This document shows, piece after piece, positions 14,301-63,484 of a stretch of DNA of 64,000 nucleotides. A model generated the notes under the pieces. That model was not told the origin of the DNA. It saw nothing but the letters and a program-made list of their open reading frames with translations, and made no database searches. The DNA is from Carcharhinus amblyrhynchos (lineage: Eukaryota), in NCBI GenBank assembly GCA_965287045.1, contig OZ336885.1, positions 66,278,001 through 66,342,000 of the forward strand, read 5' to 3'. The first letter of the stretch is position 1. Each line of letters opens with the position of its first letter. The translations under genes were made by a program, and so were the position numbers.

Positions 14301-17300
14301 AAAAAGAAACGGGCTGAGTAGTGAGCGCTCCGACACGTCAATCAAAGTTATGTCACAGCCCTTGTTGGAAGTATGCCCTTTTACAAATGAAATCTGCCAT
14401 TCGCACTTGGACCGGCTGCACGTGAGCACAGGCCCATAATATGTCTTTGTCTCGTCCTGCCTTGTGGCATTGCATTGAAAGCCATTCAAGTTAAGAGTAC
14501 CAGAATAGCCAGAAAAACAAAACGATTCCAGATACCGCCACACTCCATGAAGAAACAGAAATATATATATACTGTGGAGGAGATTGAGGTACTTTACTTT
14601 TCCACAATTAGATGAAACTGACTTTCACGATAGGATGACATACCAACTCGACTTTATTATGTGTTAATCGATTCATCCAAAAATGCTTTACTGTTCGCTA
14701 ATTTACAGTAAACAAGGGGGGGGGGGGGGGCAGTAACAAGGCAATCACCCCACATGACATTTAATTTTTTTCTTAAGATTTCTTTCTGTGGCTGTGAATT
14801 ATGGTCCTGCCATTGCCAGATAACGACATAACGTTGCACGATGCTCTGCCTTCCCATTCTGCTTTTTGTGTGAGGCTGTTGATGGTGTTATTTGTACTGT
14901 TTTGAAATTGCCACCGTTAGTGTCTGCTCTGAAATTTCACGGAACGATATCAGCAAAAAACTCGTCTCAGAACGGAAATGGGGAATTCAGAAATGTGCAG
15001 AAGAGAATGGAAAACACAACACAACCGCGTTGTAATTAATCAAGTTATTTTATGTTATTATTATTTTATATTGCAGGATCCAACGATTGCGAGGAAAAAC
15101 TACAAGATTTAGGTGCAAAATATTTTTTAAGCCTGTACAGAATATTTTACTCTAAGGTTATTACACTCAAAAGAATGTTAACATACAAAGAACATTTGAA
15201 ATCTTCGGTTCAAATTTCAATTTCTCTTGATATATGTTGGAATGTATCCGAACATAATTTCGCTCATTTGAATATTAACCATTGTACTTCAACTTGAATG
15301 GCAGTGGAGGTAAGGAATTTGAGGATGGACACGTCTATTAGGTCCAACCTTTCAACTGCTGAAATGATGGGGCCGTTTAATGCTGCACTTAGTTCAAAAC
15401 GTGCCATTAAAAAAATAAACAAAAACTGTTATCTCCAGGCGGCAATTCAGCAATATTCAAACTATTAACTCTTTGCAGTATCATCCTGACACTGGGCGCT
15501 AAGCATCGTCATGGCTTAAATATCGGCCAGAATGTAGAATTGGCCTATTTTAAACAAACACAGGAAATTAAATGAGAATGTGATACAGAGATGCAAGAAC
15601 ATAACTTAGATACACTTAACGAAAATTTAGTTCTCTCCTTACCGCTTTTGGCAGCCCTCTACAACAACAAATCATCCAGTTACAATTGTCGAATCCTTCA
15701 GATCAGTAAATCAGAAGCTTATTTTTTTCTAGTCAGTTGAATATCCAATGAGCTTGTGAAGGTATCAACTTCATATGGCTTTGTTGCATTCGCAGAGGTT
15801 GCAGTACAGAATCTCATAATCACAGTTTTTTGTCCCAGCCAGTCTAAATCGCCAAAAAAAAAACCTGACCTATCTACCAAATCCGATGTACCAGCCATTG
15901 CCACAGAGGATTGAATGTTCTGACCTGTCGAGTGTTAATTCCAAGATCTTTCAAAGGATTAGAGACAACACGGCTCCTTGGCAGCTCATTCCAATTCATC
16001 ACCACGCCGTGCTTAGCAATGATTTTCCTCATATTATGGCGAGACCCTGTCTCATATTTTGTTACTGCGTCACTTCATGAAAGGCCCTTTAAATAAAGGG
16101 AACAGCTGCTCCCTTTTCAGACTGTCGACGACTTTTATAATCTCACACACCTCGGTCAGATCCACCTTTTTTTTTCCTGGTCCAACGAAAACAATCCAAG
16201 ATTTTCCAACCTCGCTTCATAACTTGAATGCCCCATTATAGGCAGCATTTTTTCGAATCTCCTCTGCCCTTCTTCTTTTGCGATCACATTCTTCCTGAAT
16301 GGGGCGATCGGACCTGCACACCATACTCCAAATGTAGCTTCAATGTAATTCATTACAACTCCAAGACGGTCTCCTTCTTTCTGTGGTGTATGCCTCGACT
16401 ACATAAGCGAATTGTCGCATGTACCTTTTTCACCACCACTAACATTGCCTCCGCCTTCAAAGATTTATGGACAAACACACCAAGGTCATTTGTTGTTGAG
16501 AATTTCCGAACATCATGGCACGCATTCAATACTTCCACGCCAAATTACTCCATCCAAGGTGTAAGAGGTCACATTTTTCAGGGTTAAATGCTGTTTGCCT
16601 CTTATCAGCCCGTTTTACAAACCCGCCAATATATACAAAGAACAAAGAACAAAATCAGCCCGGAAAAGAGGCCCTTCGGCCCAACGAGTCCGCGCCGCCA
16701 TCTCGACACCACCAGTCCCCCTCTCCACCCACGACCCCTGTCTAATGTTTTATGGCCATCCAGATTGAGGGAATCTAATTTGGGGACAATTTATTCCTGC
16801 CAATCAGCCTAACAGCACACCTTTGGGGTCTGGGAGGAAACCAGAGCACCCGGAGAAAACCCACGCAAGCACGGGGAGAATGCGCAAACTCCCACAGACA
16901 CCGGCCCAAATCCATGTGTCTGCACAGCAATCAGGGATAGTCACTGAGCTGTCGTCATGCCCAGTATCTTGTCCAGTTTAGGCACACACTAACGACAGGA
17001 AGCACTAGGCCAATCTCGAACAACCAAGAGCAGCCCCAGTACGACCCATCGGGTGTATGCCCCTCGTTGGACACGAGGCGGACTGACTTAAAACCTGTGA
17101 ATGAAAAGAGAAAAAACATTATTATCATACCATATCCATTTACATTACCAGGGACGCCCCAATGCTTATCCCCTTAAAATAAGTATATCGTCATGGTTAA
17201 CCACCTGGCTGTTCGTCATTCATCAACTTACAAATTCACCCTCCACCATCTGAATAGTCATATAAATTCTTTATATGCATGATCTATAACCAAGAGGGTT

Positions 17301-20300
17301 GCACAGATGACTCTCATATACCACTCATGCAGCCTTGCTTCATGACGCTGTCTTCCACAACGAAGCAAACTTCTAATGCAGACCCTCCACGTCCCTCAGG
17401 GCATCCACTCATTTGCCTTATTTATAACTGTTTCATGTGGGAGCTTGTCAACGGTAATGCTTAAATTCATACCTAATACGTCCATTGCACTACACTCGAC
17501 TATACAACTTGTCAACTGCTCAAAAAAATCAATGTTTTTGCAGTTTCAATCTGTCTCTTAAACAAAGCCAAATTGACTAGCCCTGGCATCTCCATGTGAA
17601 GATAAATTGTCTCCTTCAAAACTGTCTCCAATAGTTTTCGTATAAATTGTGTATCTTTTTTTCTGTAGCTCTCTGCTCTTTCTGCGCAGTCGCAGCCCAT
17701 CTTAATAGCAAAGAAAGATTTGCTTTTCTCAAGTTCCTCTGGCGCCTCTCCCATGGAAGGGAAGGAGGTTTCCAAATGGATGAAAGATCCTGCAATCTCG
17801 CCCCTTGTCTCCTATGACAGACTAGGACACAATGCTTCGGGCTTGTATTGTCTATTTTCATTTCAATTAGCTTGGCTGTGAAGGAATGTGAAGTATTGAT
17901 TCAACATTCGATTGACGCACTGCAAATACACCATTAGATTGCCCCATTTGTCCCAAATGGGCCCTAAATATCCCAGATAATTTTCTGTCCATTGATAAAC
18001 TTAAATAATATCTTATGTCCCCATCTTTACTAACCAAAGTTTTCCCGTGTTCTGCCTTTGTTCTGCTTTTTTGTGTGTGTGTTTTTATAGATCTACCCTG
18101 AACCTTTGGTACTGCTCTAATGCTTTCTTTGATCTGCTCGCCCAGCACAAACTAAAAGCCTATTTTACTCCGGAATGTTCCTGGTCATACGTGGTTTCTG
18201 GGCTTCAAACTCGCTATACATGTGAGAGGAACCTTCTGGACCTGCAGCCTCCGAATTTCATTGTCAACAAACACACTGTTCTTTCTCAGATGTTTCCACA
18301 ACAGTTTTTCGTAGTCTACCTTGGCCGAATCATGCAACAACATCATCTCTCCTCGCCTCCAAAACCTTTAAACTTGCAACTTGGCCATTGTAATATCGAT
18401 AAATAGCTTCAATTATATAGTGTTCTGGTCGCTTTCACCAGCATGCTCACCCACCGTCACCGTAACCACCTGTCTGGCTTCATTCCCCAGAATCAAGTCT
18501 AAAACTGCACCTTTCTTTGTTTTCATTCCTCCACATTTGAACAAAAACAAATATTGTTGTTCACATTTTAAGAAATCCAACATATTGAAGTTCATAACAG
18601 TATGCATATGATAATTAATTTTGGAAAAGTTGATATGATGTACCAATAAGTCCCCGACTTTTTTTTGTTTGCACACATCGCCGATTAATGCACATATTTT
18701 CTCCCCAAATTCCGCTGATTGTTTGGGGACTGCCATTTTTATGTCTGATCATTACCAACAACACTTCAGTCGGTGCAACATCCAAGTTATCGTCTCTCCT
18801 CAGCGCAGTTGACAAACGCCTTAATGAATAATTCAACACTTAATCTTTTTTTTCCACATTTCGCTTTTTGATTATAAAGCCTGGAATGTTGAGCTCCCAA
18901 TCAGGCTTGCCTTTCAGTTCTGTTTCTATAACGGCTCATATATCAGGATTTCACGTGTTGAGTAGACCTTTTACTCAGTCATTCTACGTGTAATATCCGT
19001 TATACAGTAGATGTTCAGCATTATTTTGTTCCTTTGCAACATAATGTAGCTACAGTCTCTCTTTCTTGATTGTTTTCCTTCATCGTGAAGCGCCCATGTT
19101 CTGCGAAGACTCTGTCCTCTTCTTCTACTCAGTCTGTCTGAAAGAATGTTCATCCCGCTGTGATTCAAATAAAACATTTCAAGCTTCTGCACGACCCATC
19201 ATCTCGGAGACTGCCCCCAAGATCAGTAATATAAATCGCTCCACCTTGCACCAAATCTTAAGCTATAGATTCATCTACATTATGTTCGAATTCACTTGCT
19301 CGCTAACACGCAGCACTGGAAAGCGTGAGTTCCGGCTCTTTACTCTGTTGTCTAACTCGCAAATTACTGGTCCAAAACCTCCTTCTGCGTATCTCATTGG
19401 TACCAACATGGACCACGACCTCTGATAATTTTATTTATTAACGTCACAAGTATGCTTACATTATCACTGCAAAACTGTCAGGGTGCCCTCTAGGCATTCA
19501 GTTGCATGCTGGCCCCTGTCTGCAGGGATGCTACACAGGATCCTGGAGTCACATTGACGGTCACAGTACTGTCTGTACACAAAACTGAATCTCCGATTCC
19601 AAGCCGGGCCAGAGTGGACACGTAAGCTACATACTTGTTTGTCAAGGCCGACCAGATGGTGACGTATTCACCTCATTCCTCAAGTCAATTTGCTGCGATG
19701 GGACCACTTCTCTAAACGGACTGTCCACGACTATCTGAGACTCGCAGATGCTTCACGGATTTTCCAGCCGCCCGTCAACCTCTGAAACGAAAGCTTGCAG
19801 GAGCTCTATCTGGGCATAATCCACGCACAGATGCTGTCCCCAAGCATTGGAACATTGCCTAGCGCAAGATCAAATTGGATATTTGATATCACCTCTCATT
19901 TAAATTTAAATCTTTATCCTTAGAATGTTTTTTTTTAATGTATGACTTTTTTATTGCTAGATCCTTGGTATTGCAGCATTACAAAATACAGTGCACCATG
20001 ATGATTTTGCTTATTTCAACAGAAGAAAAAACGAATTGTCATCTCAGCCGTTTTATCTTTCCAACAATCAGATGATTTCCTCCCCCCCCCCCCCCCTTCC
20101 GTAATGCCCATTTGATCTCTGAAATCTGCTTCATTGGGAAAGACAGAGACACAATGCAAATGTTACCAGACTGGAAACATTGAAGCTTAGACCAATGATC
20201 AGAGTACACGGCTTCAACCACTCCATGTCTGCAGGCAATTCAACCCATTTCACGAAACTTGGTGCGAATGAATGAAATCAGTCTCAATAATCATGACTGT

Positions 20301-23300
20301 GCAGATATCGCTGAATGTCATAAAAACATACCGAGTGTGCTAACACCTTAAGGGAAGTGTTAGCGTGAGTGGGCGAAACGACCACTACTGACTCAGGGTG
20401 TAGTTCAATAACGGCGCAGCTTCATTTTCCTTTACGTCGACAGAGGTGCAGTCAGGACATACAATCGGAGTGTCCCAAAAGCGCTCTAAAGGTCCGCCGC
20501 AATGGGCTATAGTTATACCTGAACTTCGGTGTAGTATGAGATTCAAATGCTAACACTTTATTTACAGTATTCGACTTTAGCCATCCTGTCTCGATGTTTT
20601 CGAGTGTAAGAACGATTGTTTTAAGTGTGTGTTAATCGTTTTTGTCTGATTGGTTATTAATAGTCTAGAATCTCTGGGGTTTGAACAATGGGTGTGTGAT
20701 TGATCTCAAAGAGTTTGAGGGGCCAGGGACGTTTCCTTAGCTATGCTAATTTTTAGATGTCTCCATAGATTGTTTGACTGGTTTAACAGTGGTGGGGTGG
20801 GGATGTGTTTTTTTTTAAATTTAGTTTCTGTAGGTGCCATCCTGTCCAGCTTCCCTTGTGTGCTAGCCCTCATTTGCATTCTAAAAGCATGTTCTTGCCT
20901 ACTAACCTGTGTCTGTTACTTTGTGATTTTCACTGGAGAGGCTCTGAGTGTAATTTTAGCCTGCTTCCATTTTGTGTGCCCAATTTCATAAAATTTGTTG
21001 TCCAATAACAGAAGTAAGTAATACCCCCTTAATTTGTTTGGCCTCCATGTGATTCCAGACACAGAGCAATGTGGTTAACTATTGACATCATACGCAAATA
21101 GCCAATCAAACAAATGTAATGACAATTACGCTGAACAACACGTCAGAATGAGGGCCACCTGCCCATGGACGGCTCGAGGAAACAAAGCATCCAAGTACAA
21201 CAAATGCAACGATTCAATTCTAGCCTGGTCACTTAAACTCCTTATACTTTCAACCGTTCACCTTGCATTGTTAGTAATACCTAAGGCTGCAAGACATAGA
21301 TTAATACTTCCATCTTGATTAATTTTAATGTTTTGTTAGCAGAAGATTAGTTCGAACATTAAATCCTTCTATTGCCCAACCTGCATTGTTTTATATTTTG
21401 GGATTTATTAGAAAAGAAGATGAAAGACAAAGAAACAGGTAGATGTTTTAATTCGATATCTGCGTAACGGAACACAAGTTATTATTCAATTAATCTGACT
21501 TTTTTTGTTTCTAAAATTTTAGTTTCACTAAAGATTTGACAAACATCCCAGTTAATTTTGGGATCCAAGGGCAGCACGTATGTGTTCCCAAGGTTCAAAG
21601 TAAGCAAATGTTTTTGCTTCCATGAAGACAAAACAAAAAAAAATAGTTACAAATGCATGATAATCAGCGGAGAACCAACACTGAGTGTCCTACGGCTGTT
21701 GTCAAGATTATATCAGAGTTTCCATTAAAGTTGGATCAACACGTGAGAACTAAAAGTTAGATTAGATTTGAAATTGTTGTCAGCTAAACCGATATTCAGT
21801 GAAAATTATTGCTTTGCATGCTGTCCATACAAACTATGGTATATATAAATGTTTCAGAATAATAGAACGGAGCCTAGAAGATAGTGCTATAGCTATAAAA
21901 AACGTGCAAAGAGGATCAGTTCAATATCTGAGGGGTCCTTTCAAAAGTCTGACAACAGCGGGAAAGAAGCGGCTCTCCCGAAATTAGGATCAACACATCT
22001 TATTGAATTGATGGACTGCCTGTTTCTTGAAAACAGAAGGCTCAGGCTTGTAATCGGTTTAAAATGATGCCTTCTCACATACGAGGCAGAAATAAATACG
22101 TGAGATTGAAGTTAGTAAAACGTCTGGAAGAAATGAATTTAACATAGCCAAGTCATCTTTTGGGAAATTTGAAACTGAGCGTTATTGAAGGGGAAATTCA
22201 TCTTGTTGAAGCGTTGTTTCTGCAATTCATTTGTTCAGTACTCATGAATAACAAACAATAAATGGATCCCTCTGCTGTGCAACACTTCAACCCACAGAAC
22301 CATCCATTGTCCAATCAAAGTCAGGCTGGCTGCTTGTATTGAAATAAAGTTTACCAGTTAATTATCATTTGTCCATTAATTGGCACATTCCTGTGGTAAA
22401 AAAAATACTGTTCGCTCTCTGCTTGATAAGCTATAAGGACCTGTGGAGTAATATTGCAAACCGTCCGAATGGGAGGAAACGGTGGGGGGTGGGGAGGGGG
22501 GTGGGGGTGGTGTAGTTCATGGCATGTATCTTTTGACAGCAATGGCATAGTCACATTATTCGTTCAGAAATGAACTGCGGAGACAGCTTTTCTCACTGAA
22601 ACACGGAAACGTAGGAAATAGAGGCTGGAAAAATTATTGCGCTCTGTTCTTCGAGCCTGCTCCTCCATCCTTTGCTGATCATCAAACTCCATATCCTGAA
22701 GCTACCCGCCCAAAATGTCCCCAATCACTTTAGCCCAAAGAGCTGTACCTATTTTTTTTGAGATATTGCGCAGACAGTTGGTCTCAACTGTGTTTTGCAG
22801 GAGTTAATTCCCTAGATTCGTCCTTCGCCAAATGCAGGAATTTCGACTCATCTTCGTCCTGAAAGGTTCATCCCATATGTTCGAAGGAAGAGCCCTAGTT
22901 CTCGACTCCCTCACCATCAGGGATGTTCTTTCTAACTCCATCTTGTCTAAATTGTTAAAAATTTATAAGATTCCAGGGAATAAGAATGAAAATTCTATGG
23001 GATTAGGATTATCCCCTAATTGATTGAGTCTCCCCTCATGCGACTGATGTCCATCACAGGAATCGATTGAGTGATGCAGGAGGGCATCGAAGCCTTGCTG
23101 TGTATCCACGTTCTCAATTTCTACCAGTTCAAATAATAATCTGACTTCATATTATTGCCACTGAATTGGACAAGATCACATTCATCAAATGTATACTGCA
23201 CCTGTCGTGCATATGTCCATTCCGTCTTCCTGTCCAAATCTCAATGAGGTATTTATGCATCCTCTTCACAGATCACCGACTTAATCAAAATAATATCGTC

Positions 23301-26300
23301 TGAAAATTCGGAGATACTACATTTAGTTCCCTCTTCCAAATCATTAATATATAATGTGAACAGTTGGTGATCTCTGTGGCGCAATACATGTCAGAGCCTT
23401 ACAATTGAAAAATAAAATGCATTTGTGCAAGCTGTTTGCATCTTGCATGTTACCCAGATTCCTATCCATTTGAAGACGCAACCAGTAATCCTATGCACAT
23501 TAACATCACATAGTGTTCTGCAATGTCAGACATTGTTGAAAGCCTTCCAAATGTCTAAATAAACCACATTCACCGATTGTCCTTTGCCAACACTACTGCT
23601 TTAATTCTCAAAAAAATCCAACTGATTCTTCAAGCATTTCCATTTCGTAGATTCAGGCTAACTTTGATTATCCCGCTGCTTTCCACTTGCTGAGCTGCGA
23701 AATACTTAACAATAAATTGCAGCCGTTTCCCGAGTTCTATCGTCATGCCACTGATCTATGCATAGAACATAGAATATTAGAACATAGAACATAGAATGCT
23801 ACAGTGCAGAAAGAGGCCCTTTGGTCCATCGAGCCTGCACCGAACACAATCCCACCCAGGCCCTAACCCCATGCCCCTACATATTCTACCCACTAATCCC
23901 TCCAACCTACGCATCCCTGGACGCGAAGGGGCAATTTCTTAGTATAACCAATCAACCCAACCCGCACATTTTCGGACTGTGGGAGGAAACCGGAGCACCC
24001 GGAGGAAACCCAAGCAGACACGAGGATAATGTGCAAACTCCACACAGTTTTAACAGAAATCCATTCCATAGAACATATAACATAGCATCCTACAGTGCAG
24101 AAAAAGGCCCATCAGCCCATCGAGTCTGCACCCAACACCGAACTATAATCCCCTATCTTTTTTTCTACTTCTACCTTGAATTACGGGTTAATATTAGCTA
24201 CATTCCAATTTGCACAACCGGTCGAGAATACAAATATTGCTTGATAATTACCACCAAACAGTCTTCTATTTCGAGGGTTTCTTCCTTATATACTCTGACA
24301 GGAAGATTCACAGGCGCTGGAAATGCATCCAGTTTCAATGCTATCAATAACTGCAGAATATTTTTTCCACTAATGCTCATTTCCTTCGGCACCTCACGAG
24401 AACTTTTTTTATTTCTCTCTCAGAACGTCACACACATTGTTAATGCCTTATTTTGTCAAGATAGAAGTAAAGATTCAAATTTCCTCACTTATTTATTGTT
24501 CCGCAAACACAGCTACCTCTTTTCTGACTTTAAAGGGCCTACATTCGTTTTTTTTTGTGCGTCTTTGTTCCCCGTGCATACCAATATGAATGTTTAAGTT
24601 AATTCTTATGCTCCACTCTAGCTTACATTTATGCACTAGTTGACCATTCTCAACCGATCAATTGGCCCTCCTTTGCTGAACATTAAACTATTGCCAGTCC
24701 TTCATTCAATTGTTTCAACCGTCTTACCAATTTGTTGTTTTTTATTCTTTGAATTATTGCTATCACTACTTTCCATTATATGCCATTGATTGGCCACTGT
24801 TTCCCGACAACTATTGCGACAAACAGAAATAATCAACATCCTTGGACCCGTGTCTTGTATCTTTAATGCATGCCCTTGCCGGCGCACTGCCCTTCCTTTC
24901 AGTCATGTGTGTCATTCCAACATATCCAATTCGTGCCTCATACCACCTTAGTTGCATTCATTGTGATTCAGAAATCCGGTATGAAGACCAAGAATCACTC
25001 CTCGACAAAGAATTCTATCATCTTATGTTTACTCTGACCCAAGTTTTCTCTTACATCAAAATTTCCAACTGATAAATTGTCATTGCACAATACACATAAA
25101 GGTGCAAAATGTGCAAATCGATCAAACAGATTTAATTGAAAGGAAAAACTAAGCTGCATTTGGCAATAAAGTGCACAAACCTAAGGAGAAATTGAAATCA
25201 TTTGCATTCATGTAACGTCATGAACTATGAGGAGAGCAAGAGACCCATATATACTACAAATATCAATGATGAGCGTAGGCTTGAGAGGCCGACTCGGTTG
25301 CTCATACTCCTATCACACCTGTTTATATGTCATTCTGCATGGGCCAAATGGTCTCATCCATAACCATTTTGCAAAAGAAGTGGAGAATCATAGCTGGACT
25401 TCTGTTTATTTTTTGCGAATGGAAATATACTGTGAACAGCCAGGATGCGCATAATGACCAATCCCGGTCAGCTAACAAATGGTTGTTTTTTTTTTAGTGA
25501 ACGCGTTGTATTCGGAGACAAAACATATTCTGTTTCTATAATAATGCTCACGATTATTATCTTTATACTTTTTTTACAGAACTGATTAAAATTCAAAATA
25601 ATTTAGAAGACTTAGGTGGGAATGTGATAACTATTCTCAACTTTTTACTTGTTTGCTCTTGAGAATAAAGGCTAACGTCAAAGTTCCCCGTATTATGGAA
25701 AAAAAATGTTCCGGTATATTTTCCGTGTCTGCTACTCAGGAGGCGATAGCGTCAGCATTGTTCTACGTCTCATAGTTACACGTCATCTTTCTGTATTTCA
25801 ATGTAAATGTGAGTACCAAAATCTATACTTACCAAACTAGCGATGCCCAGATGGCGAGGAAAATATTTTATAAATGTTTTAAGCCAAATTACATACTCTG
25901 GCGTGTCGTTGAGCAAGCACGGATCACACTAATATGTAATTGTTGAAAAAGAAACACCACGTTGCAACTTCAATTTCAAATGACACTGATAAATTAATTA
26001 ATGTGCAAACCTGAAATGTTGTCATTGCTTGTATTTTTGTTTTATTGTTGTTGGCACAAGTTACAACTTATGATCTGTTTAACTTGAAACTTCCATCTTG
26101 AAACTTATGTTACATTGTTTAGCGAGGTTTGAACGTGCATAAATGATCTATTGGCGATGGGAAATGTTTTAGACTGATGGGATTCGCACAGGTTGGTGAA
26201 GTACAGATAGAAACTGATCTACATGGGGCTTAGTTTCTAATCCCACAATAACAGGAAATTATACCCAAATTCAAAAATCATCTGGGATACAATGTTAGCC

Positions 26301-50300: not shown

Positions 50301-53300
50301 AGAAATAGCAGCTTTAAATAAGGAACTGCAAGATGCAGGTGAGAATAAAATGACGCAGGAACATGGGAACAACGTTCGTCATTTAATTACAACCCAAGAG
50401 CATAAACTGCCAGTCACTGGAGCAGAGCCTGTTTTGACTCAAATCTTTATGTTTTCCCTTGCAAACTAGATAACTTGCCATTTCAGAATAGTGTGCTAAA
50501 TGTATGTTAAACATCGAGTCTTGATGTCTTTTGCAAATCTAGTCTTGAAAGTATTTTTTAACACATTTGTTCTATTACTTCAATCATCAGCCAGCAAAGT
50601 AAAGTAGTTTTCATCTCACTGTCAATTTCAAATAACTTTCTGGAAACTTTGATCGAGTCAGCTCTCTTTTTTTTTTAATTTCAGGTGATTATAATCTCAC
50701 TTACTCTAAAGGGCATTATTTTTTGTTTTTATTATTTTCCTTTCCTGGCTAATTCTGATAGTTCTTCTTAGATCTCTCGTCATGCCTAACATATGTACCT
50801 GGAAATATTTCGAGGCGTACAGAATAATCAGGTTTCCCGTAATAATTTCTGATTAAACTGTAACGTGACTTCCTGCTTTTTTAATTTCGTTGCAATTTAA
50901 CTATCAACTGTTTCATTTGCCATGATGATAATTTCTGAAAATACTGATAAACAGTAATTATCTATCATTGAATGAACTGTGCTTATTGCTATTCCCATCC
51001 GTTGACTTGTTACTAATTTGGAACGTTGTCAGATCGATACGCCTTGCCTCACAGGAGTGTGACCTTATCATCATACATTGAAAACGCATTGGCAATGTTT
51101 GCATTTTAAGTTACCGAAATGAATATCAAAATTTCTATCCGATTTTATATTTGTGTTCAGAACGAATATTGTCCCATAATTCCATGTGAAGCCGTTAGCT
51201 AATAGTGATAAATTCGATCAATGTGACTAAATGGGGGAGTGGATATATGGTAGCTGGATATGGTGCTTCTGGCTTCTTTTGTGCAGACTGAAAAATCTCA
51301 CACATTCACTTTGCTAATGTTGAACGAGGTTCGGTATGTTTGAATTCTGTAACTTTCAAAGAATATAGAAGATATTTACACGTGTGATCGATGGACAGAT
51401 GCAATTCACGATTAAAACTTGGTCTGTTTTGGCAGCTGGGTTGTAGATTTATTGTCCAGGAAAAAAATGGTTGCATGATCGTTTTAAACACGTAGTTCCA
51501 GACATTCCATTTAGCAACCAAAGTTACTCACAGAAAGAACAATTAGTGCAGCAGACTGCACTAAACACTCCAATGGTCCCTCATGTTTTGCATCATGGTC
51601 CCTTGACTGCATGTGCCCATCTTCTTTAAATTATTTAGTAGCATTGCCACAAGACCCCTTTGCTCAATCGACAACGTAATAGCCACTTTTAATAAAAACA
51701 CTAGCATTTTCCAAATCGAATCGCAGAGAAGGATGTGCATTTATTATTGAGTTTTTAAGTTTCGTGCAATTTGTTACGGGATCCAACTCAGATCATCTGG
51801 CGGTATAAATTTCCTGAGATCTAAACTGACCATTACAGATATATTGACATTATGCATTGACATCCTGGGCATGGCTGCATGTTTGCACTGACTGTCTTGG
51901 TTGCCTTCTATATTTCTGATCTCTGTGGCCAACAATAGATGTGTTCTAGCCACATTTGTTGTCCTGGATGTCATATAATTAGACAAAACCATTACTGCAT
52001 TTCTTTTGTTTCTCTTTTACATTATCCCATCGGTTTTCTGACCTCGTAGGATCTGTACTCATATATATGATGCTTGCTCCTATGGGACACCGATTCTATG
52101 AATACCAAACACGATGTTCACGTTCATGATCGTCACTTTCAACGAATATAGAAAATATTTACACGTGTGATCGATGGACAGATGCAATTCACTATTAAAA
52201 CTTCTTCATTTTCATGATGGTCGACCCTGTTCTGAAAGTAAATGCCTTGATTATTTTTATCCCTGCACTTCACAATTCTATCCGCATAAGTACAGAAAAT
52301 TCACTTGACAAGATAGCGTACGCAGAATATTTCGTTATGATTCTCATGACCTTTTTCATATTTGTCCCCATAATGTGTGGAAGGATATAACAATGTGTTA
52401 GTTGTCATAAAATTCAGAGACACACAGAGCAATCTGAATGTTGGATGAAAAACTGTATTCAATGTTTGGATAATTTCAAACTTAGAAATGTAATCAATGA
52501 TGTGGGGACATTTTACAAGTTTATATAAAGTACATTTTTTTGCAACTTTGGATCAAGAGTGCAATGAAGTTTTGTGAGGATGCATCAATCCTCCTCCGCT
52601 CCAAAGAGAAAAGCCGCAGCTCCCTCAACCTTTCCTCATAAGATCTATCCTCCAAACCAGGCAGCATCCTGGTAAATCTCCTCTGCACTCTCTCCAATGC
52701 TTCCACATCCTTCTTATAATGAGGTGACCAGAACTGAACATAATATTCCAACTGTGGTCTCACCAACATCTGCTATAGTTGCAGCCTAACCCCACGGCTC
52801 TTAAACTCAAACATCCTATTAATAAACGCTAACACACTATAAGCCTTCTTCATGGCTCTATCCACTTGAGTGGTAACCTTCAGAGATCGGTGGATATGAA
52901 CCCCGAGATCTCTCTGCTCCTCCACATTCCTTAGACCTTGTAATCTGCATTCAAGTTTGTCAAACCAAAATGAATCACCTCACACTTATCAGGTTTAAAC
53001 TCCATCTGCCACGATTCGGCCCAGCTCTGCACCCTATCAATGTCTCTTTGCAACCTGCAAGAGCCCTCCACCTCATCCACTATGCTACCAATCTTGGTGT
53101 CGTCAGCAAATTTACCAATTCACCCGTCAGCCCTTTCTCCCAAGTCATTGATAAAAATCACAAAAAACAGAGGACCCAGCATCTACTCCTGCGGCACATC
53201 GCTGGTAACTGGCCTCCAGTCTGAAAATTTTCCCTACGCCAGAACCCTCTGTCTTCTATGATACAGCCAGTTACTTATCCAATTGGCCATATTTCCTTCT

Positions 53301-56300
53301 ATCCTACATTTCCTTATCTTCTTCATGAGCCTACCATGGGGAACCTTATCAAACGCCTTACTAAAATCCATGTATACGACATCAACTCTTCTACCTTCGT
53401 CCTCAAACTTAGTTATCTCCTCAAAGAATTCAGTCAAATTTCTGAGGCAGGACTTACCCCTCACAAAGCCGTGCTGACTATCCCGGATTAAACTGAATCT
53501 TTCCAAATGGTCATAAATCCTATCTCTCAGGACCCTTTCCACTAACTTACCGACCACCCAAGTTATACTAACTGGCCTACAATTACCAGGGTCATTCTTA
53601 TTTCCTTTCTTAAAAGAGGAACAAAATTTGCCACTCACCAGTCCTCTGACACTATCCCTGTGGACAATGAGGACCCAAAGATCAAAGCTAAAGGCCCAGC
53701 AATCTCATCCTTGTGTCGCTTCAGTTAAGAAATCCGAAAGGGCATACTGCTATGGGTCATTTTGAGTTTCCTCCTGAATTTTTTTTCTATATGTATTACG
53801 GATGAGCACATGGAGATGTTTTCAACGTCGGTGTTCTTCCTGTCGATTTCAAGGACTACCAAAACAGGCACTTTGCATCAGATTCAGTGAACTGTCCAAT
53901 GCCTCTGAAGTAATTACTTTGATGTCAGATTGGTATATCAACTACTTTTTTTTAATTATAGACCGCATATTCATAGTTGTGCATTTCTCAATTGTTTGCG
54001 ACAGCTGTTGCCATAATTTGCACCATAATTCACAATAGGGCATGTATGCAATCCTGTGATCCCACATGGGAGAGAAAATTCTTCAGGTGTTATGGTCGAA
54101 TAATAGAATTCCAGTTCTCCTATGCTGAATGACTGAAGTCTACTTACTTTTTCAACTGGCATATTGCACACGCTACCCATATTCTGTGGATCTATCTACG
54201 GGCGTATGTCTCTTCTAATAATGGTTCTTCACGTGTGTCGAACACGTGTTGATGGTTTTCTTGCAGTACGTATGGGAAAACCTGAAATAAATCTCTCGAA
54301 GTGATAATGTTCTTTAAGGTTGCTTGGCTGTTCATGACGTTAATAAATTGAAGAACGTGTAGTATTTCTGTGGACATCTGCATCCTGGGCCTATCAATAC
54401 GTCCTGCAACATTAGGATTGATTGGATAAAGCAGGATTTTTTGGCTCTGTAGACGAGTACCTCATTATGAAGCTGCTGCGATTTCTTAGCATAAAGTTCG
54501 ACCATGCTGCCATTTCAGTTTGAAACGAATCCAAAGGTCATTATCAATGCGGCTGCATGCAAGAACTATTTTTTTTTTCACTGAATGCGTGTGCCTATAT
54601 TTTGTATAATGTAAACAGCACTTGCCGAAGTTTATCCTGAAAAGATAGATTCATTGTCGCTCCTCTGTAGTTTGGGTAATGTCAGGAATTGGGAACGTCT
54701 ATCATATTACAGTTTTGCACTGCATGTGGTTAGCTCAACTCTTAGATATCTTGTGGCATAAACATATTTGGATTTCCATCCTTTCCCAGTTGGAACACGA
54801 TAGAATAATCCCAATCGTTATGCTGAAGCATATTATGGATCATTGCATTACACTGCATGTCAAATCATTTCTTTCTAACCGTGTTTGTTGTGTACAGGCT
54901 GCATCGACAAGGCCAATACAGACCGTCAATGCAATTTTTCCGCACCATTGGCACTATCAACTCTAAAAATTAAGCATTAATTATGTCTGGATATGTCATT
55001 TGTACATAGCCGACAGACACAGTACATCGTCCGTCTTGATTGATCTACTTGTCATCAGCACATGTATTGAATTAATGTTAAGTTCCATAGATGCAAATAT
55101 CCTTATTCGACCGATGCACCCATGTTTGTTGGGGACAATATTTGCTCACGGACGGTCTTAGCTCATGTCCAGCAGAAATATATTTTCTTACAGGGAGATT
55201 TGTCTCGTAGACAACTGGAGTGTGTGTTCCCTACACATTCGCTTAAGTCCCAATAAATCAAGGAAAACGCATAGTCTCTACTTCGACGATTCATTTCCTT
55301 CAGTCTGTTATGTTGAAAGGAGGCAAAAGCTATTTCTGCTTGACCGAATCAACATAGTGATTCCCATTCACGATTTCCGGAAAAAAAGTGATTACCTTCT
55401 TGTTTGAAGAGATCTACATTAATCATTGGCAGCTGGGTCTATCAGGTCACTGGAATCATCTTTGTGCTTGTATTTACGTCGGCTTTCTTTTGCTCTCATT
55501 TCCGATATTTCTGGTATGCCGCACATTTGATTTGTTACACTGAATCTTGTCGCAAATGAAGAAGAACTTGTCCTGCATCAGCTCGCCCAATGTTCCCTTG
55601 GGCCACATCTCGTGTGACTGACTCGGGATGAAAAGCAGTGTTGTCCTTAATGAATGAGTTCCAACTTCTCAGATCACTTGCTTTCGTCCGTGAACCCAAA
55701 ACTGTGCCACTCGTAGTAGCTTCATAATGTGCTTGCATATATCGTTGGTCAACAGAACATTTTATTTGGTTCTGTTGTTTGTAAGAAGCATTTTTTATGA
55801 CTTTCTACTCATTTCCTTATCGAGGAAGTTATTTTCGAAGACGTTAATTGGGATTGAAGTTATAAGCAGTCCCAGCATTCATTTGGACAGCTATAAATAA
55901 AGGATATGGTTCCAAAATAAACCACACGTTTCTTTATCACGGTATTTGCTTACGAATTGCTCAGTACATCATTGTGGTTATTGTGTGTAACTATCAGCTC
56001 CAATTCAAAATTTGACGCAGACAGAGACACAGACACACACGCAGACACACACGCAGACACACACACACACACACACTCACGCACGTATAAATCGATTATC
56101 CTCAAGGTTATTAACTGCTTCACATGCAACTTTCAATTCTTTGAAGTAGCTTCATTGACTGTGTTTGATCCCTTGTTTCAACTGAGTTATTAATTTTCAC
56201 ATTTTCCGCATTTCTAAAAATTTAATCCATAAAAAATCATTCCATCCCATGTATAGGAATATCAAATTCGATCGAAAATCCTTAACCTCCCAAACAAATC

Positions 56301-59300
56301 TGGGATTTTTTGGCCATCCTCCATAGATTCCCTATATATTATATGTATGTTCTAATTATATATGGCATTTTAAGCATCACTGCCACACGGCAGGACTCGG
56401 CAATGAAACGTATGTGTTTGCCCATCTTCCTTGTTTTTCGCTGCAGTTGATGTTCCTGCCACACATCAAAACAACAGCTTTATTCTGCTTGGCTCGTGAT
56501 TGTGTGTTTGTCTGTGTGTTTGTTTTGTATTGAAACTGCAGCTACGAATACTTAAAATGTGCTGCAGAATTATCGCCGAAATAAAGCAGAACTGAGAATA
56601 GATGTGTTGCTTCCGATCACCCCAAATTAGCTTTCCCACACACCAAGTACTCAATGTTTTGTAATCGAATAACGCAGTAGGGGTTCTAGCTCCTGATTTT
56701 TTTTCTATTGTTTTCAATTATGTCGATCAAAGTAAAGGTGCACTGAAAGAACACCCGTCATGTGTCCCTTTAAAGCAACAGCCCACGTTGTCCCAAGAAC
56801 ATTGTTGCACATTGCATACGTATTCTCTGAAAGTGACATCTCCATAGTTTGCATGCGCATCAGTCCGTGTTTGATTACTTCAAATACGGACTGATGCGCA
56901 TACAAATTATGGAGGTGCATGAAGATCGGGAAATTGGTATGACCCGATTTGTGCAGGGGCTGTGACAACTGAGAAAGTTGAATCATCAGCCACGGGTTTC
57001 GGTAAATAAGGCGCAACATGTGTCGTTGTTCGGGGATTGTATTCTGAATGGATGGTTCGTATGAATAGGTTCCTATGAATAAGGGTTAGAGTGTAATCTA
57101 CCTTAGTTGGGAGTTCTGTGAGATTGTTGATGTGTCCGGATGTACGATTTGCCAACGTGTAGATGGCAATGTACGTGGGAATGTATGTACGACCACTGGA
57201 TGATTTTAGTTCAGAATTCTGAGCGTTTCTCCTTTTTGAAAAGCATTTCTTCTGTGTTGGGCAGCAAAAAAAAAATCTCTATGCTTTTCAAACAAACTTT
57301 GAATTGATGCAACATTACTGTTTATCTTGCTCTCCATCAAAAGTTTGAGTCCCTTAATTTCACTTGTGCATTGGCACATCTATGACATCTCACTTTATGT
57401 AATATGGCCAGCTGTTCATTTTTGTTTCTTCCTGCGACTCCGTTCATTTCAGACAATAAAGAATCCCTTTCAACAGTACATAACTTGAGACAAGCTGGAA
57501 AAAAAAGTCAAGCGTTTAAACTTGCAAATACCAGAACATTTCACGCGGAGGTCAGTATAAGAGGAAACAACAATCTATACAGCTCCAGACAAAAAGGTAC
57601 TGATCGCACGATCAGAAAGTTTGATTGACAGAGGTGTCACCATCAGTTAGTGACTGACAGTTACTTGCTGAACAATGTTTGAATCGGTGTGTTGGTGCTC
57701 CATTCAGGTTTCCTACAACGCTCGGCATTTAACAGTCTATTACTCTCTATTATTTCTGGGAAGTCTTGTACCAAAGAGAGTCCACTTAGAAGCAATAGCA
57801 CACTCTTCTAACTGTGTGTCAATTTTTCCTTTCGCCATACATAGAAAGTATACAGATGTGCGCTGATGGTTGCAAGACAGAAAATGTTTTCAGCAATTGA
57901 GAAAATCTATATTTCTTCTTACGCGGACAGGTACTGTAAAGCATGGAAGTGTTGAATCGGTAATTGGATGAATATTTTAAAAAAAATTGCACTTTCAAAA
58001 AAAAGGAAGAAAAAAATAGTATCAGAGAAAACTTACAGTCACAACGGAAATAGGAAGAATTATTCCTTTGTGATGAGATTCGTGTTTTTATTCCCTCATA
58101 AATCGACCTGTACTCATTTACTTATTTTAACAGGAGAACTTTTTCGACAGAAGCAGAAAGGTAATGGATCACGATTATGAGTTTTGTAACATGTACACTT
58201 AAATAATCCCGATGAAACCACTTCACTGCTACATCCCGGTCATTGGATATGCGTGCTCACACTAAGGTTTCCACTTATTTGTTTCTTTTAATAGATGAAT
58301 ATATGTTTGACTGCCTGATATCATCTACATTATAAGTATATTTAAACATGTGTCAAGTCAATGACAGAATTCTATCCCGGAACAGTAATCTAAATTGCAA
58401 AAGGAGGTCGATTTATCAGGGTTCGAATACATAACGTAGACTAAATCACCCGGTTGTATACAAAATAAAGTATATGTAGTTAGCTGACTATTAGGCATCA
58501 TCATTCAGAAAAAAAAATTCATCCATTTAAAATCCAATGATTTTTGAATGTATGTGTTTAGAATGTAGAACGGTATGTTATTCGCAGTAAGGGATGTTTT
58601 AAACTTTATTTATTTAATTTACGAGCTTCCGGGTTTCATACGTGTGTTTTTTTTTAACGTGGTTTTCTAACTCATGAAGTTAAAAGACGGGTCACAAATA
58701 TTGTTTTAAAGATTTTGCAAAATAAAAAAAGGCACTAAAAAAAATGTTGATAAAAGACAGGAGACCAGGGCCCCAATACAGACAGGAATAGACAGATGGA
58801 CTGTTCAGTGTGTTTTGTGCGATGAGAAGTAAATGTGGAATTCCTAAGCTGTCAGCAAGATATATCCGGGAAATTTGAGCAGACGAAACTCATTTGCCTG
58901 CATTTTTTAGCGTGGTTTTCTAACTCATGAAGTTAAAAGACGGGTCACAAATATTGTTTTAGTGATTTTGCAAAATTAAGAAACGGCATAAAAAATTCAC
59001 TTGCTGAAAGACAGGAGACCAGGGTACCAGTGCAGACAGGAATAGACAGATGGACTGTTCAGTGAGTTTTGTGAGATGAAGGGCGAATGTAGTATTCCTA
59101 AGCTGTCAGCAAGATATATCCGGGTGATTTGAGCAGACAAAGCTCATCTGCCTGCTGTGAATATGACAATTGCCATAACAGACAATTGGGATGGTGTTTA
59201 TTTGGAATCATATGGTGAATGCTCAACAATCCACTTGATGAAAATTGGTTTCAAAGGCTAAAGATCTGTAGGTTAGATTTATTTGCTAAGTAAATGTGTG

Positions 59301-60907
59301 GGGTAACAGGGATAGGGGAAAGTCTGATTCATGTATTCAGTCAGAGAAGGAAGCTGCGATTATATTTTCTGATTCCAACTGCATGAACGCAAGCACAAAG
59401 TCTTGGACAAGAAAGAGTTATATATTTTATGGAGGTTTGCATGCGAGATTGAATCATTTCCTCATTTTTTCAAATGGAAGTATTTTCAAACATGTTGTAT
59501 AGCGTTATATCGTTAATGTTTCTCGCTTAATATATTATTTAATATTCGTGCTAAAAGTGATTGGGCAGGCTTTGTTGAATCTATTCAGCAATTGATATCC
59601 AAGGATAGTTAAAAGTTAAACAAAGCTGGGACCTATCAAGCCAGCATATATTCAGGGTTCCGGCTTTGATAGCATTAATACTACCTGGACAATAACACCT
59701 TCACAGTCGCGACCATTTAAAATATGTGCATTTTTTAAACGTTTAATAATTATATGTAGTTGTATTCAAAACGGTGCATGAAGTAAACGCATCCTTACAG
59801 ACCAACAGACATATAATAATCGGGACATTTTAGAACGCAATAAAATCGCTTTCAGAGTTGAATTTACAGCAACTAAAATTTTCCCGCTTATTTCAAGGAA
59901 ATAATGTAAAAATGAGATGTCAGCGAGAACGCGTTGTGCATTTGCCTAAACGAAAATATCCTTTCCGGCAGTAAAATTGCACTGTTGAAATATTCACTGG
60001 GAAAGACAGATTGCGATGCCGAATTTAAGAAAGAAAGGCAAAGTAATGCCCCACTACCCCCTCCCCCGCAACCCCCCCCCCTCCCCCCCGGGCAAATTGT
60101 CACTGCATTCGGTGAACAACCTGATGACGTGAGATCTGGTAGAAGGAGATTTCATTTAAGTAATATATTAATGATTAGAGAGAATTAGGGAACCAGTAAT
60201 GGTTTACTTTGAAAGAATACGCTAGATTCATAATTTAAACGAGTCGTGAATTAATGAGTGGCAATGCAAGAGCTGAAGGTGCTGAGCTAAATGTCAACAG
60301 CAATGCAAGTTGTTCTGCCACCGTGCTAATTTAATCGCATAGTATTTTATGCACCTATGTATGGTTGTGGAAGGCTCCAACTTTTCTTCCATCTGATGGC
60401 TATCCCAGTTTCCCTTTGGTTCTTTTGGTTTTCAATTGGCTTTTGTTCGATAGGTTTCGAATATCAACCCACTGTGCGCGTTATGAAGGCAAGTTCCCTA
60501 CCAATTACCACTCATGATGGGGCGCGAAGTACACATTTGGTGACGGGGCGGGGTCACGCCCATCACAATACAAAACCTGTTTGTAACAAAGCACAGAAAA
60601 GTTACTTTTTCCCTTTATCAAGGAGGACAATGTCATCTAATATTTCATAAACATCATTAGCAGATGCCACAGAAGGTTTCATAGCCATTCGATTTATCCT
60701 AACAGCGTTTAAAGCCACAAAGCCCAAACCATAATTCTGGTGGAGGCTGAACCGATATCTACCATTAAAGCTGAAATAAACGCTGCCAGAGAAGAAGTTA
60801 TTGATTCCTTTAGGAGAAGCAGAGGAGGGAGCTTCATCCAATTACCATTATATGTTTTCATTCTTTTAAAGAAATAGACAACTTGAAATCCCGTCTTGCT
60901 GAATGTG
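11330..60907 (+). CDS. Internal part of an unidentified micro-exon gene encoding a long coiled-coil segment (14 exons, 399 nt, 133 codons; spliced model)
   Basis: 14 AG/GT-bounded exons of 15/27/36 nt, all phase 1-1; the concatenation has no stop and shows a/d hydrophobic heptad periodicity. Predicted from sequence only, no transcript evidence. Confidence 0.8.
12058..12367 (-). mobile_element. HE1-like tRNA-derived SINE with CR1-type tail
   Basis: Core aagcacccggagaaacccacggagacaagggaaaaatgtgtaaactccacacagac shared with copies at 16.8, 24.0 and 31.4 kb. Confidence 0.8.
15077..15112 (+). CDS. micro-exon 2 (36 nt): [12 protein letters not shown]
   Basis: ttattttatattgcag|gatccaacgattgcgaggaaaaactacaagatttag|gtgcaa; donor is weak, but the ending L-Q-D-L matches other 36-nt exons. 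Confidence 0.65.
   Translation, partial: DPTIARKNYKI
15860..19870 (-). mobile_element. Old, internally deleted CR1 LINE (ORF2 C-terminus, endonuclease and probable ORF1 remnants), interrupted by a SINE
   Basis: [16 protein letters not shown]; [39 protein letters not shown]; [27 protein letters not shown]. Confidence 0.75.
16636..16962 (-). mobile_element. HE1-like SINE nested in CR1
   Basis: (aaagaac)n tail, aggcccttcggccca, ggaggaaaccagagcacccggagaaaacccacgc core. Confidence 0.85.
20358..21010. mobile_element. Probable solo LTR (653 bp)
   Basis: Termini tgtta...taaca, flanked on both sides by gaag (4-bp target duplication); appears to split an older repeat whose parts lie at about 20220-20357 and 21015-21090. 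Confidence 0.65.
21412..21438 (+). CDS. micro-exon 3 (27 nt): EKKMKDKET
   Basis: ttttgggatttattag|aaaagaagatgaaagacaaagaaacag|gtagat. Confidence 0.7.
22610..25080 (-). mobile_element. Highly decayed CR1 LINE, interrupted by SINE copies
   Basis: Residual CR1-like text (tcattaatatataatgtgaacagt; gaaagccttccaaatgtctaaataaaccacat; [35 protein letters not shown] resembling the K-S-P-G-P-D-G..P-R-V-L-K-E region). Confidence 0.6.
23761..24150 (-). mobile_element. HE1-like SINE (5' truncated) with (catagaa)n tail, plus a second tail fragment at about 24066-24150
   Basis: catagaa repeats, tacagtgcagaaagaggccc, gggaggaaaccggagcacccggaggaaaccca. Confidence 0.85.
25580..25615 (+). CDS. micro-exon 4 (36 nt): [12 protein letters not shown]
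   Basis: ctttatactttttttacag|aactgattaaaattcaaaataatttagaagacttag|gtggga. Confidence 0.75.
27049..27075 (+). CDS. micro-exon 5 (27 nt): EEQMKVKVK
   Basis: taatttcctacttaacag|aagaacaaatgaaagtaaaagtaaaag|gtgatt. Confidence 0.72.
27770..27880 (+). mobile_element. Short decayed Penelope-related terminal fragment
   Basis: ttgacgaaggactggactcgaaacgtcag resembles the PLE CTGAnGA..GAAACGTC motif, followed by ctgctaagattttccagcattttct. Confidence 0.4.
28090..28485 (+). mobile_element. Old CR1 3' end
   Basis: atgagaggggatctattgaaggtgtagacgataat (RGDLIEV-type CR1 C-terminus) followed by a 3'UTR-like tail. Confidence 0.55.
30673..30699 (+). CDS. micro-exon 6 (27 nt): EFDDLQQKF
   Basis: ctgcttcttttttttag|aatttgacgacctacagcaaaagttcc|gtaagt. 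Confidence 0.78.
31345..31688 (+). mobile_element. HE1-like SINE
   Basis: gggtttctccgggtgctccggtttcctcccacac-type core, gggccgaagggcctgtt tail; reverse complement of the 16.6 kb copy. Confidence 0.85.
31990..35432 (-). mobile_element. CR1 LINE, about 3.4 kb, with most of ORF2 (EN plus RT), 5' truncated
   Basis: RT: [58 protein letters not shown]; EN: [32 protein letters not shown]; C-terminus [18 protein letters not shown]. Confidence 0.95.
33368..33649. mobile_element. Non-autonomous Penelope-derived insert with 83-bp inverted arms, nested in CR1
   Basis: 33368-33450 is the reverse complement of 33558-33640 with 1 mismatch; flanked by cctataatt on both sides; homologous to 508-680. Confidence 0.9.
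35448..35474 (+). CDS. micro-exon 7 (27 nt): QAVLQQKDS
   Basis: ttcttattcgcttacag|aagctgttttgcaacaaaaggattcag|gtaaat. Confidence 0.75.
36464..36499 (+). CDS. micro-exon 8 (36 nt): [12 protein letters not shown]
   Basis: ttttatctgttttgaag|aaataacggacctccaaagaaaatgcgaacaattag|gtgagc. Confidence 0.75.
39359..39498. other. Assembly gap (140 N)
   Basis: Run of n. Confidence 1.
40861..40875 (+). CDS. micro-exon 9 (15 nt): EKENN
   Basis: tttaacttattcacag|aaaaagaaaacaatg|gtaagg. Confidence 0.7.
41462..41763 (+). mobile_element. HE1-like tRNA-derived SINE
   Basis: A-box-like tggcgcagcgcttgg, B-box-like ggtttcgaatccc, body ggattggttatgctaaattgtcc, CR1-like tail. Confidence 0.75.
42224..42250 (+). 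CDS. micro-exon 10 (27 nt): VLEAKEKLD
   Basis: tttttctcatcatattttag|tactcgaagcaaaggaaaaacttgacg|gtgagg. Confidence 0.72.
43095..43615 (+). mobile_element. Two short CR1 3'-end fragments
   Basis: 3'UTR motifs ggctaaacggcctgtttccatgct and tgggccgaatggcctgattcagctccaatatcttatggtctta. Confidence 0.6.
43835..45250 (-). mobile_element. Decayed Rex1/Babar (L2-related) LINE fragment
   Basis: [37 protein letters not shown](PQG-type) RT region; 3' [11 protein letters not shown]. Confidence 0.65.
46490..47190 (-). mobile_element. Second Rex1/Babar-type LINE fragment
   Basis: [34 protein letters not shown]; nucleotide similarity to 44050-44700. Confidence 0.7.
47490..48710 (-). mobile_element. Old CR1 LINE 3' fragment
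   Basis: acataggaacagaagtagg tail; [21 protein letters not shown]; gcccagcactgattc motif. Confidence 0.7.
48939..48965 (+). CDS. micro-exon 11 (27 nt): DEETREKDS
   Basis: cttgcattttatcatcag|atgaggaaacgcgagaaaaagactcag|gtaatg. Confidence 0.75.
50303..50338 (+). CDS. micro-exon 12 (36 nt): [12 protein letters not shown]
   Basis: tctttgttattcatcatag|aaatagcagctttaaataaggaactgcaagatgcag|gtgaga. Confidence 0.8.
51352..52203 (+). repeat. Dispersed direct repeat of about 69 bp (51352-51420 and 52135-52203)
   Basis: actttcaa-n-gaatatagaa-r-atatttacacgtgtgatcgatggacagatgcaattcac-k-attaaaactt occurs twice with 3 differences. Confidence 0.9.
52586..53712 (-). mobile_element. CR1 LINE RT fragment, closely related to the 32-35 kb copy, lacking the 3' tail
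   Basis: [58 protein letters not shown]; [38 protein letters not shown]. Confidence 0.95.
56018..56085. repeat. (CA)n-type microsatellite
   Basis: cagacacacacgcagacacacacgcagacacacacacacacacacac. Confidence 0.95.
56837..56917. other. Long near-perfect inverted repeat (38-bp stem, 5-nt loop)
   Basis: catctccatagtttgcatgcgcatcagtccgtgtttga-ttact-tcaaatacggactgatgcgcatacaaattatggaggtg. Confidence 0.9.
58134..58160 (+). CDS. micro-exon 13 (27 nt): GELFRQKQK
   Basis: tttacttattttaacag|gagaactttttcgacagaagcagaaag|gtaatg. Confidence 0.75.
58658..59155 (+). repeat. Tandem duplication, period 253 bp, 2 copies
   Basis: cgtggttttctaactcatgaagttaaaagacgggtcacaaatattgtttt starts at 58658 and 58911; similarity continues to ...ctcat-y-tgcctgc. 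Confidence 0.92.
60872..60907 (+). CDS. micro-exon 14 (36 nt): [12 protein letters not shown]
   Basis: gttttcattcttttaaag|aaatagacaacttgaaatcccgtcttgctgaatgtg|gtaagc. Confidence 0.8.
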
Positions 60908-63428: not shown

Positions 63429-63484
63429 GTGGTGCCCAAATGAAAGGTGCAATGCTGTGGTGCCCAAATGAAAGGCGCAATGCC
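63429..63484 (+). repeat. 28-bp tandem duplication
   Basis: gtggtgcccaaatgaaagg-y-gcaatgc-y x2. Confidence 0.9.

Follow-up and report, generated by a model that had tools for sequence, protein, structure and literature searches.

A predicted shark gene of about 200 phase-1 microexons: a putative coiled-coil rod with half-turn exon parity and a terminal B30.2 domain

Introduction

The portions of two accounts of chicken BG proteins drawn on here describe members of the butyrophilin family whose long coiled-coil tail contains cysteines in the coil and is encoded by numerous tiny exons, each with its first codon split (PMC5938342, PMC4046983). In the B12 haplotype these tails comprise 13-36 exons of 21 nt, the number varying between genes (PMC4046983), and they have been modelled as coiled coils in which a true heptad spans two exons (PMC5938342). 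The alternative splicing described there is intron read-through that truncates the tail (PMC5938342). BG proteins carry an IgV domain and a transmembrane segment, and the same passages contrast them with butyrophilins that end in B30.2 (PMC5938342, PMC4046983). In butyrophilins of the BTN/BTNL type, heptad repeats are followed by a terminal B30.2 domain and the number of heptads differs by lineage, as far as the cited sections go (PMC4046983, PMC12841164); butyrophilins are reported from cartilaginous fish in one of them (PMC12841164).

Here we analyze a stretch of 64,000 nt of shark DNA (the window), G000:C16:66278001-66342000, where G000:C16 coordinates denote contig OZ336885.1 of a 2.9-Gb genome. 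Fourteen of the 199 predicted phase-1 microexons of a gene of ~0.9 Mb probably lie in the window; the gene would encode a coiled-coil rod of ~1,900 residues and a B30.2/SPRY domain. The exon size pattern is likely the result of germline duplication of even-numbered exon blocks under register selection and not of paired exon skipping.

Results and Discussion

Microexons of the window

A phase-1 unit scan of the window predicted 14 AG-exon-GT microexons of 15, 36, 27, 36, 27, 27, 27, 36, 15, 27, 27, 36, 27 and 36 nt; the initial exon scorer used general vertebrate donor frequencies. All of the exons and sizes reported by the first-pass annotation were present, although exon 1, at 11330, lies before the span of 15077..60907 that it had assigned to the array. 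Rod exons fall into two classes: g-start exons (36 nt, or a 27-nt truncation lacking three codons) and e-start exons (27 nt, or a 15-nt truncation lacking four codons). Positions below are those of the window.

1..64000 (whole window), + strand: interior of one predicted gene, with microexons on both sides and a terminal B30.2/SPRY exon downstream
11330..11344, + strand: predicted microexon 1, 15 nt, phase 1; shortened e-start type, its own residues giving no class
15077..15112, + strand: predicted microexon 2, 36 nt, g-start class; weak donor
21412..21438, + strand: predicted microexon 3, 27 nt, e-start class
25580..25615, + strand: predicted microexon 4, 36 nt, g-start class
27049..27075, + strand: predicted microexon 5, 27 nt, e-start class
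30673..30699, + strand: predicted microexon 6, 27 nt, g-start class (36-type minus three codons, a stutter); ends in C
35448..35474, + strand: predicted microexon 7, 27 nt, e-start class
36464..36499, + strand: predicted microexon 8, 36 nt, g-start class
40861..40875, + strand: predicted microexon 9, 15 nt, a stammer (shortened e-start type); no class could be called
42224..42250, + strand: predicted microexon 10, 27 nt, g-start class
48939..48965, + strand: predicted microexon 11, 27 nt, class not callable
50303..50338, + strand: predicted microexon 12, 36 nt, g-start class
58134..58160, + strand: predicted microexon 13, 27 nt, e-start class
60872..60907, + strand: predicted microexon 14, 36 nt, g-start class

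Exon 6 has an alternative, stronger-scoring donor after 30732, 33 nt downstream, which would give an in-frame 60-nt form. The extension (30700-30732) encodes an insert rich in aromatic residues and proline, which would interrupt the coil, and it carries a non-synonymous change in one relative. Judging from paralogous exons, we prefer the 27-nt form. Exon 6 and both of its splice sites are identical in genomic contigs of three related organisms, and the exon with its surrounding 82 nt is unchanged in all three, the most distant of which differs by ~19 substitutions in 501 nt (p about 0.04). Five read sets of relatives all behave as genomic DNA, with introns covered and no splice joints.

The window also contains other kinds of sequence. 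Its long open reading frames resemble retroelement remnants or chance frames. A 254-nt tandem repeat in two copies that are 87% alike occupies 58650-59155, in the intron after exon 13. Minus-strand fragments resembling CR1 LINEs, 82-87% alike and ~20.2 kb apart, are located at 32355-35400 and 52588-53700.

Extent and ends of the predicted gene

We scanned a contiguous stretch of 1,064 kb. Over the gene span, an untrained scorer found 77 candidates of 27 nt on the plus strand versus 3 on the minus strand, and 51 versus 5 of 36 nt; after training of a matrix on plus-strand seeds the counts were 184 versus 1, before removal of overlaps. Curation with size-specific score thresholds resulted in an array of 199 predicted microexons, which when joined comprise 1,970 codons with no stop. 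Their sizes are 27 nt (107 exons), 36 nt (73), 21 nt (nine) and 15 nt (six), with one exon each of 18, 24, 30 and 42 nt.

The array begins at G000:C16:65533063, ~745 kb before the window, and opens with nine consecutive 21-nt, single-heptad exons (G000:C16:65533063-65658186) that precede the half-turn exons described below. It ends in a B30.2/SPRY exon at G000:C16:66436397-66436911 (SPRY E=1.7e-12), ~94 kb past the window, so that 904 kb separate the first microexon from the stop codon. A short run of N in one intron of the array may hide an exon. Between G000:C16:65953369 and 65985993 we observed a recent tandem duplication of ~10-kb blocks with near-identical 36-nt exons, two of them identical; proline-containing candidates lie between these exons and this segment of the rod is less coil-like. 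An intron of the gene contains, on the minus strand within G000:C16:66248001-66258000, a frame of 476 codons which we take to resemble the gag of a retrovirus or LTR element.

The first coding exon was not found among the candidates upstream of the array. The best-looking leader candidate was rejected since it sits in the tail of a CR1-like retroelement, and the remaining ones were set aside as unconvincing. A candidate 120-nt exon with a hydrophobic start is located at G000:C16:65492438, 40 kb upstream of the first microexon, and has no paralogous match in the genome. Motif scans of ~250 kb upstream of the first microexon detected neither an Ig nor a RING motif, and a V-set search of the genome placed none of the at least 150 matches listed, which are dominated by other loci, on the contig of the gene. 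The joined protein has 5 N-glycosylation sequons versus 9.2 expected (p=0.09), a difference that is indecisive for a secreted versus a cytosolic protein. Of its 42 Cys, 22 lie at the two d-position columns.

Heptad register and half-turn parity

The hydrophobic residues of the joined protein have a best period of 3.50-3.52. The 3.5 signal exceeds that of exon-order shuffles both gene-wide (0.56 vs 0.26±0.03, p<0.001) and in the window (0.94 vs 0.34±0.17, p about 0.006-0.007), and 27- and 36-nt sizes alternate more often than expected (111 vs 82±6). Core residues are encoded by codons 2, 5, 9 and 12 of the 36-nt exons and by codon 4 of most 27-nt exons; a 36-nt and a 27-nt exon thus form a three-heptad block. 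Exons of 5, 9 and 12 aa correspond to 1.43, 2.57 and 3.43 turns at 3.5 residues per turn, each close to a half-integer.

Of the 154 callable junctions, 125 (0.81 vs 0.50±0.04 in shuffles) join a g-start and an e-start exon. The classes were called from the residues of each exon, blind to order, and the junctions of the 19 unclassed exons out of 190 were dropped. Alternation holds at 64 of 72 junctions in the 3' part of the gene and at all 8 in the window, while 29 of the 154 native junctions break it. Neighbouring 27-nt exons, for which size is uninformative, belong to opposite classes in 31 of 40 cases (p=1.5e-6). Stutters and stammers are the mildest discontinuities of coiled coils. Alternation of the classes therefore makes 36+27 (21 aa) the basic block and 27+27 (18 aa, a stutter) and 36+15 (17 aa, a stammer) its tolerated variants.

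In silico skipping at 83 junctions of the 3' part reduced the 3.5 amplitude from 0.79 in the native order to 0.12 when single exons were removed. Removal of two exons left it at 0.78 for pairs adding up to a multiple of seven residues (59 cases) and at 0.86 for other pairs (24 cases). The first-pass annotation had proposed that pair skips keep the register and single skips break it. That prediction is borne out by the simulation, with the amendment that pairs need not be multiples of seven: the constraint on register is parity.

The pairing arithmetic on which the first-pass annotation had relied fares less well. Adjacent pairs add up to multiples of seven residues at 8 of 13 positions in the window and 113 of 189 gene-wide; among the others, 48 pairs give 18 aa, 11 give 17 aa and 11 give 24 aa. 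Disjoint pairs of this kind cover 12 of the 14 window exons, leaving exons 1 and 6 unpaired, and this coverage is equalled in 29% of size shuffles (p=0.29); gene-wide, 130 of 190 exons are covered versus 119±7 (p=0.077). A proposed 15+27 block is rare, as 15-nt exons adjoin 36-nt exons at 10 of 12 positions and 27-nt exons at 2. The remark that no exon is by itself a multiple of seven codons applies to the window and not to the gene, where 10 of 199 are. The sizes are indeed related to the heptad in that register is kept across exons, yet the rule that operates is half-turn parity.

Frame safety and stop safety

All 14 window microexons are multiples of three in length and in phase 1, and their last base is G (12), A (1) or C (1). 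It had been claimed that no exon ends in T and that no combination of skips can create a stop codon. Both statements are correct within the window (0 of 91 possible junctions), but gene-wide one of the 199 exons ends in T and 87 of 19,701 junctions would be stops. The probability of finding no T-ending exon among 14 is 0.36 with 7% T at donor position -1, and 0.70 when stops in the constitutive reading are allowed for. Since 66% of the exons begin with AA, AG or GA, a T end would mostly create a stop already in the unskipped message. T-ending exons are still rarer gene-wide than predicted by constitutive reading (1 of 199 vs about 5, p=0.039), with the caveat that these exons have a common ancestry and a preference for G donors. 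When donor position -1 was given neutral weight in a rescan, T-ending candidates were as numerous on one strand as on the other (13 vs 13; 6 vs 6) and included only one high-scoring, real-looking exon. Tandem duplication without a frameshift is possible only for symmetric-phase exons, which accounts for frame safety, and the end of a phase-1 exon is donor position -1, usually G, which accounts for stop safety. Neither property needs an explanation from splicing, and the points made about stop safety and 15+27 pairs are ordinary.

Internal duplicates and paralogs

Of 16 best-match pairs of internal duplicates (at least 75% identical), 13 are offset by an even number of exons (p=0.011, the pairs not being independent), and several pairs lie at spacings that are exact multiples of seven residues (21, 42, 42, 140 and 329 aa).

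Among the matches listed, close paralogous B30.2 exons number at least five on the contig of the gene and at least one on C9. Three paralogs examined on the contig of the gene all have 27/36-nt phase-1 exons. A paralog with a 58% identical B30.2 has kept the exon order, 10 of 11 matched pairs being collinear. Between its microexons and those of the gene pS is 0.66 and pN is 0.21, close to the values for the B30.2 exon (0.55, 0.24), though pN is biased low as exon pairs were chosen by similarity. Just upstream of the gene and head-to-head with it, a second 27/36-nt microexon array occupies the minus strand (G000:C16:65310286-65364425). Its closest matching B30.2 exon among the matches listed is ~1.6 Mb off, at 63.74 Mb, and the array may represent an even larger paralog. 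Elsewhere in the genome, well over 100 further B30.2 exons among the matches listed form dense clusters on contigs C9, C41, C46, C53 and C73, which are a large expansion of the TRIM/BTN type.

Relatives in cartilaginous fish

A HMMER search of 1.84 billion representatives matched chondrichthyan RefSeq models from sharks, rays and a chimaera, namely in Callorhinchus, Scyliorhinus, Narcine, Leucoraja, Cetorhinus, Hemiscyllium and Rhincodon. Examples are:

XP_042192744.1, Callorhinchus: family model of 1,697 aa, named 'nuclear-pore anchor-like'
XP_055510696.1, Leucoraja: family model
XP_069775384.1, Narcine: family model
XP_038672306.1, Scyliorhinus: family model
XP_060706632.1, Hemiscyllium: family model

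Like the shark gene, these models combine a coiled coil of 9/12-aa modules with a B30.2 domain of the divergent clade; unlike it, they are mostly much shorter or partial, and they are named automatically after unrelated proteins. TRIM39-, TRIM58- and TRIM69-like are among the names used. Both these annotated relatives and the repeats of the window indicate a cartilaginous fish. SPRY was the only domain in all six family models scanned, which lack RING, B-box and Ig, several of them possibly being partial. Three family models have a hydrophobic N-terminal leader, and two of the six domain-scanned models start with Met followed by such a leader. In a B30.2 tree of 35 rows from top-scoring matches (10 family, 25 TRIM/BTN-type, isoform duplicates left out), the family including the shark gene forms a clade with 100/100 support, apart from TRIM and BTN types.

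Between two versions of the ~1,700-aa chimaera protein, which are annotation versions and not isoforms, 8 of 12 gaps measure exactly 9 or 12 aa, which indicates that the modules are ancient. Word-indexed homologue searches were nearly blank (0/518, 2/529 and 1/36 candidates), and a protein-atlas look-up returned only SPRY-containing clusters, including one of 1,579 aa below the lead threshold of 0.9. We found no description of the family in the open-access literature searched; subscription journals were outside the scope of this search.

Comparison with BG, butyrophilin and TRIM proteins

As in the parts of the BG accounts cited above, the shark gene has a predicted coiled-coil tail of tiny exons, including the nine 21-nt single-heptad exons at its 5' end. 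BG exons are whole heptads there (21 nt, a few of 18 or 24 nt), and single skips would keep the register; in the shark gene 186 of 190 rod exons have half-turn sizes, in two alternating classes. Only 9 of the 199 exons are 21 nt and 180 are 27 or 36 nt, the terminal exon encodes SPRY where a BG tail has no B30.2, no Ig exon was found in the regions searched, and the exon number is ~5 times that of the longest BG tail in those accounts.

The gene resembles BTN/BTNL, as portrayed in the cited sections, in having heptads before a terminal B30.2. This domain matches B30.2 structures of BTN3A1 over its full length; PDB matches were to BTN3A1/A3 and also to TRIM58, TRIM21 and pyrin. BTN/BTNL proteins have few heptads and an IgV-IgC-TM ectodomain according to the same sections, while the B30.2 of the shark gene belongs to a separate long-branch clade and gave no Pfam PRY match. 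TRIM PRY-SPRY proteins such as TRIM58, TRIM21 and pyrin likewise present C-terminal B30.2 heads on a coiled coil; unlike them, the family has no RING or B-box in six of six models, and the upstream motif scans of the gene showed no RING. The shark gene is thus neither a BG nor a TRIM member. Its B30.2 in the family clade and its coiled-coil exons of 27/36 nt in phase 1 place it in the chondrichthyan family of microexon coiled-coil B30.2 proteins.

Origin of the size pattern

We consider it likely that the array arose through many germline duplications of an ancestral block of two exons and three heptads. Gains or losses of odd numbers of exons would shift the hydrophobic face to the opposite side of the helix, half a turn away, and may mostly have been purged, and the transcript would be mainly constitutive. 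Chains may oligomerise as a parallel coiled-coil rod of ~280 nm (1,907 residues at the coiled-coil rise of 0.1485 nm per residue). By analogy with BTN, TRIM and BG tails, such a rod could carry B30.2 heads as avid binding modules far from a putative N-terminal hydrophobic leader, which would be a signal or an anchor.

The splice-tunable ruler proposed by the first-pass annotation, in which neighbours are skipped together in pairs or even numbers and rod length changes in 14-21-residue steps with the hydrophobic face kept, seems quite unlikely to us. All exons are symmetric in phase 1, nearly every skip is free of stops (the 87 of 19,701 excepted) and in silico the 3.5 signal survives two-exon skips (0.78-0.86) and is lost on single ones (0.12), but duplication history predicts every one of the features cited for the ruler equally well and pairing in the window is at chance level (p=0.29). 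Introns that follow 36-nt exons have a median length of 2.1 kb and those that follow 27-nt exons one of 3.4 kb (p=0.03). This modest difference hints weakly at coupling of 36+27; the same medians mean that kilobases separate paired exons. Isoform models of three relatives (n=11: 5 Narcine, 3 Scyliorhinus, 3 Callorhinchus) have four internal gaps, of 6, 9, 9 and 9 aa, when measured against the longest form with differing N-terminal starts left out. All four are the size of a single module and none that of an exon pair; an older chimaera model adds one gap of 7 aa. As these are computational RefSeq models of shorter paralogs with some gaps in linker-like stretches, they weaken paired skipping without refuting it. 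The ruler is thus unsupported, since duplication suffices to explain the pattern. We hold a parity code for splicing to be just as improbable: as every rod exon is a half-integer number of turns, only even skips would be tolerated, and inclusion of neighbouring microexons would be coupled across kilobases. The resulting rods would stay in register, differ in length by 14-21-residue steps along ~280 nm and thereby determine the reach of the B30.2 heads.

The gaps in the relatives' models, where single modules of 6-9 aa are absent, could also reflect functional skipping of single exons, regulated or noisy, with half-turn flips serving as hinges or partner switches that diversify the rods. The existence of alternative isoform models indicates that splicing in the family is not purely constitutive, and at 1% skipping per exon over 199 exons a calculation leaves 13.5% of transcripts complete, with skips that would escape stop-codon surveillance. 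Alternation is, moreover, already broken at 29 of 154 native junctions. We nevertheless find this possibility unlikely, as the strong alternation and the conserved exon order point to genomic selection against flips, and the gaps are few and partly in linker-like regions. It is very improbable that the microexons resemble spliced exons by chance or are left over from a dead gene. The exons are predictions, and the candidate search did not yield a start exon, but such an origin is at odds with the strand asymmetry (184 vs 1), the absence of stops over 1,970 joined codons, the intact SPRY exon, the collinear paralogs with pN<pS, the unchanged exon 6 and its 82 nt in three related organisms (p about 0.04) and the homologues annotated in sharks, rays and a chimaera. 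Our preferred explanation remains the duplication of even-numbered exon blocks under register selection.

Significance

If the predictions hold, a gene of ~0.9 Mb with ~200 microexons represents an extreme of the butyrophilin/BG design of a "heptad-exon tail plus B30.2", and a family of cartilaginous fish proteins sits in databases under misleading names. Under the half-turn rule any skip is safe for the frame and would almost never make a stop, yet an odd skip would flip the hydrophobic face of the coil. The pattern of skipping would therefore tell high-fidelity splicing, pair coupling and noise apart for 200 microexons.
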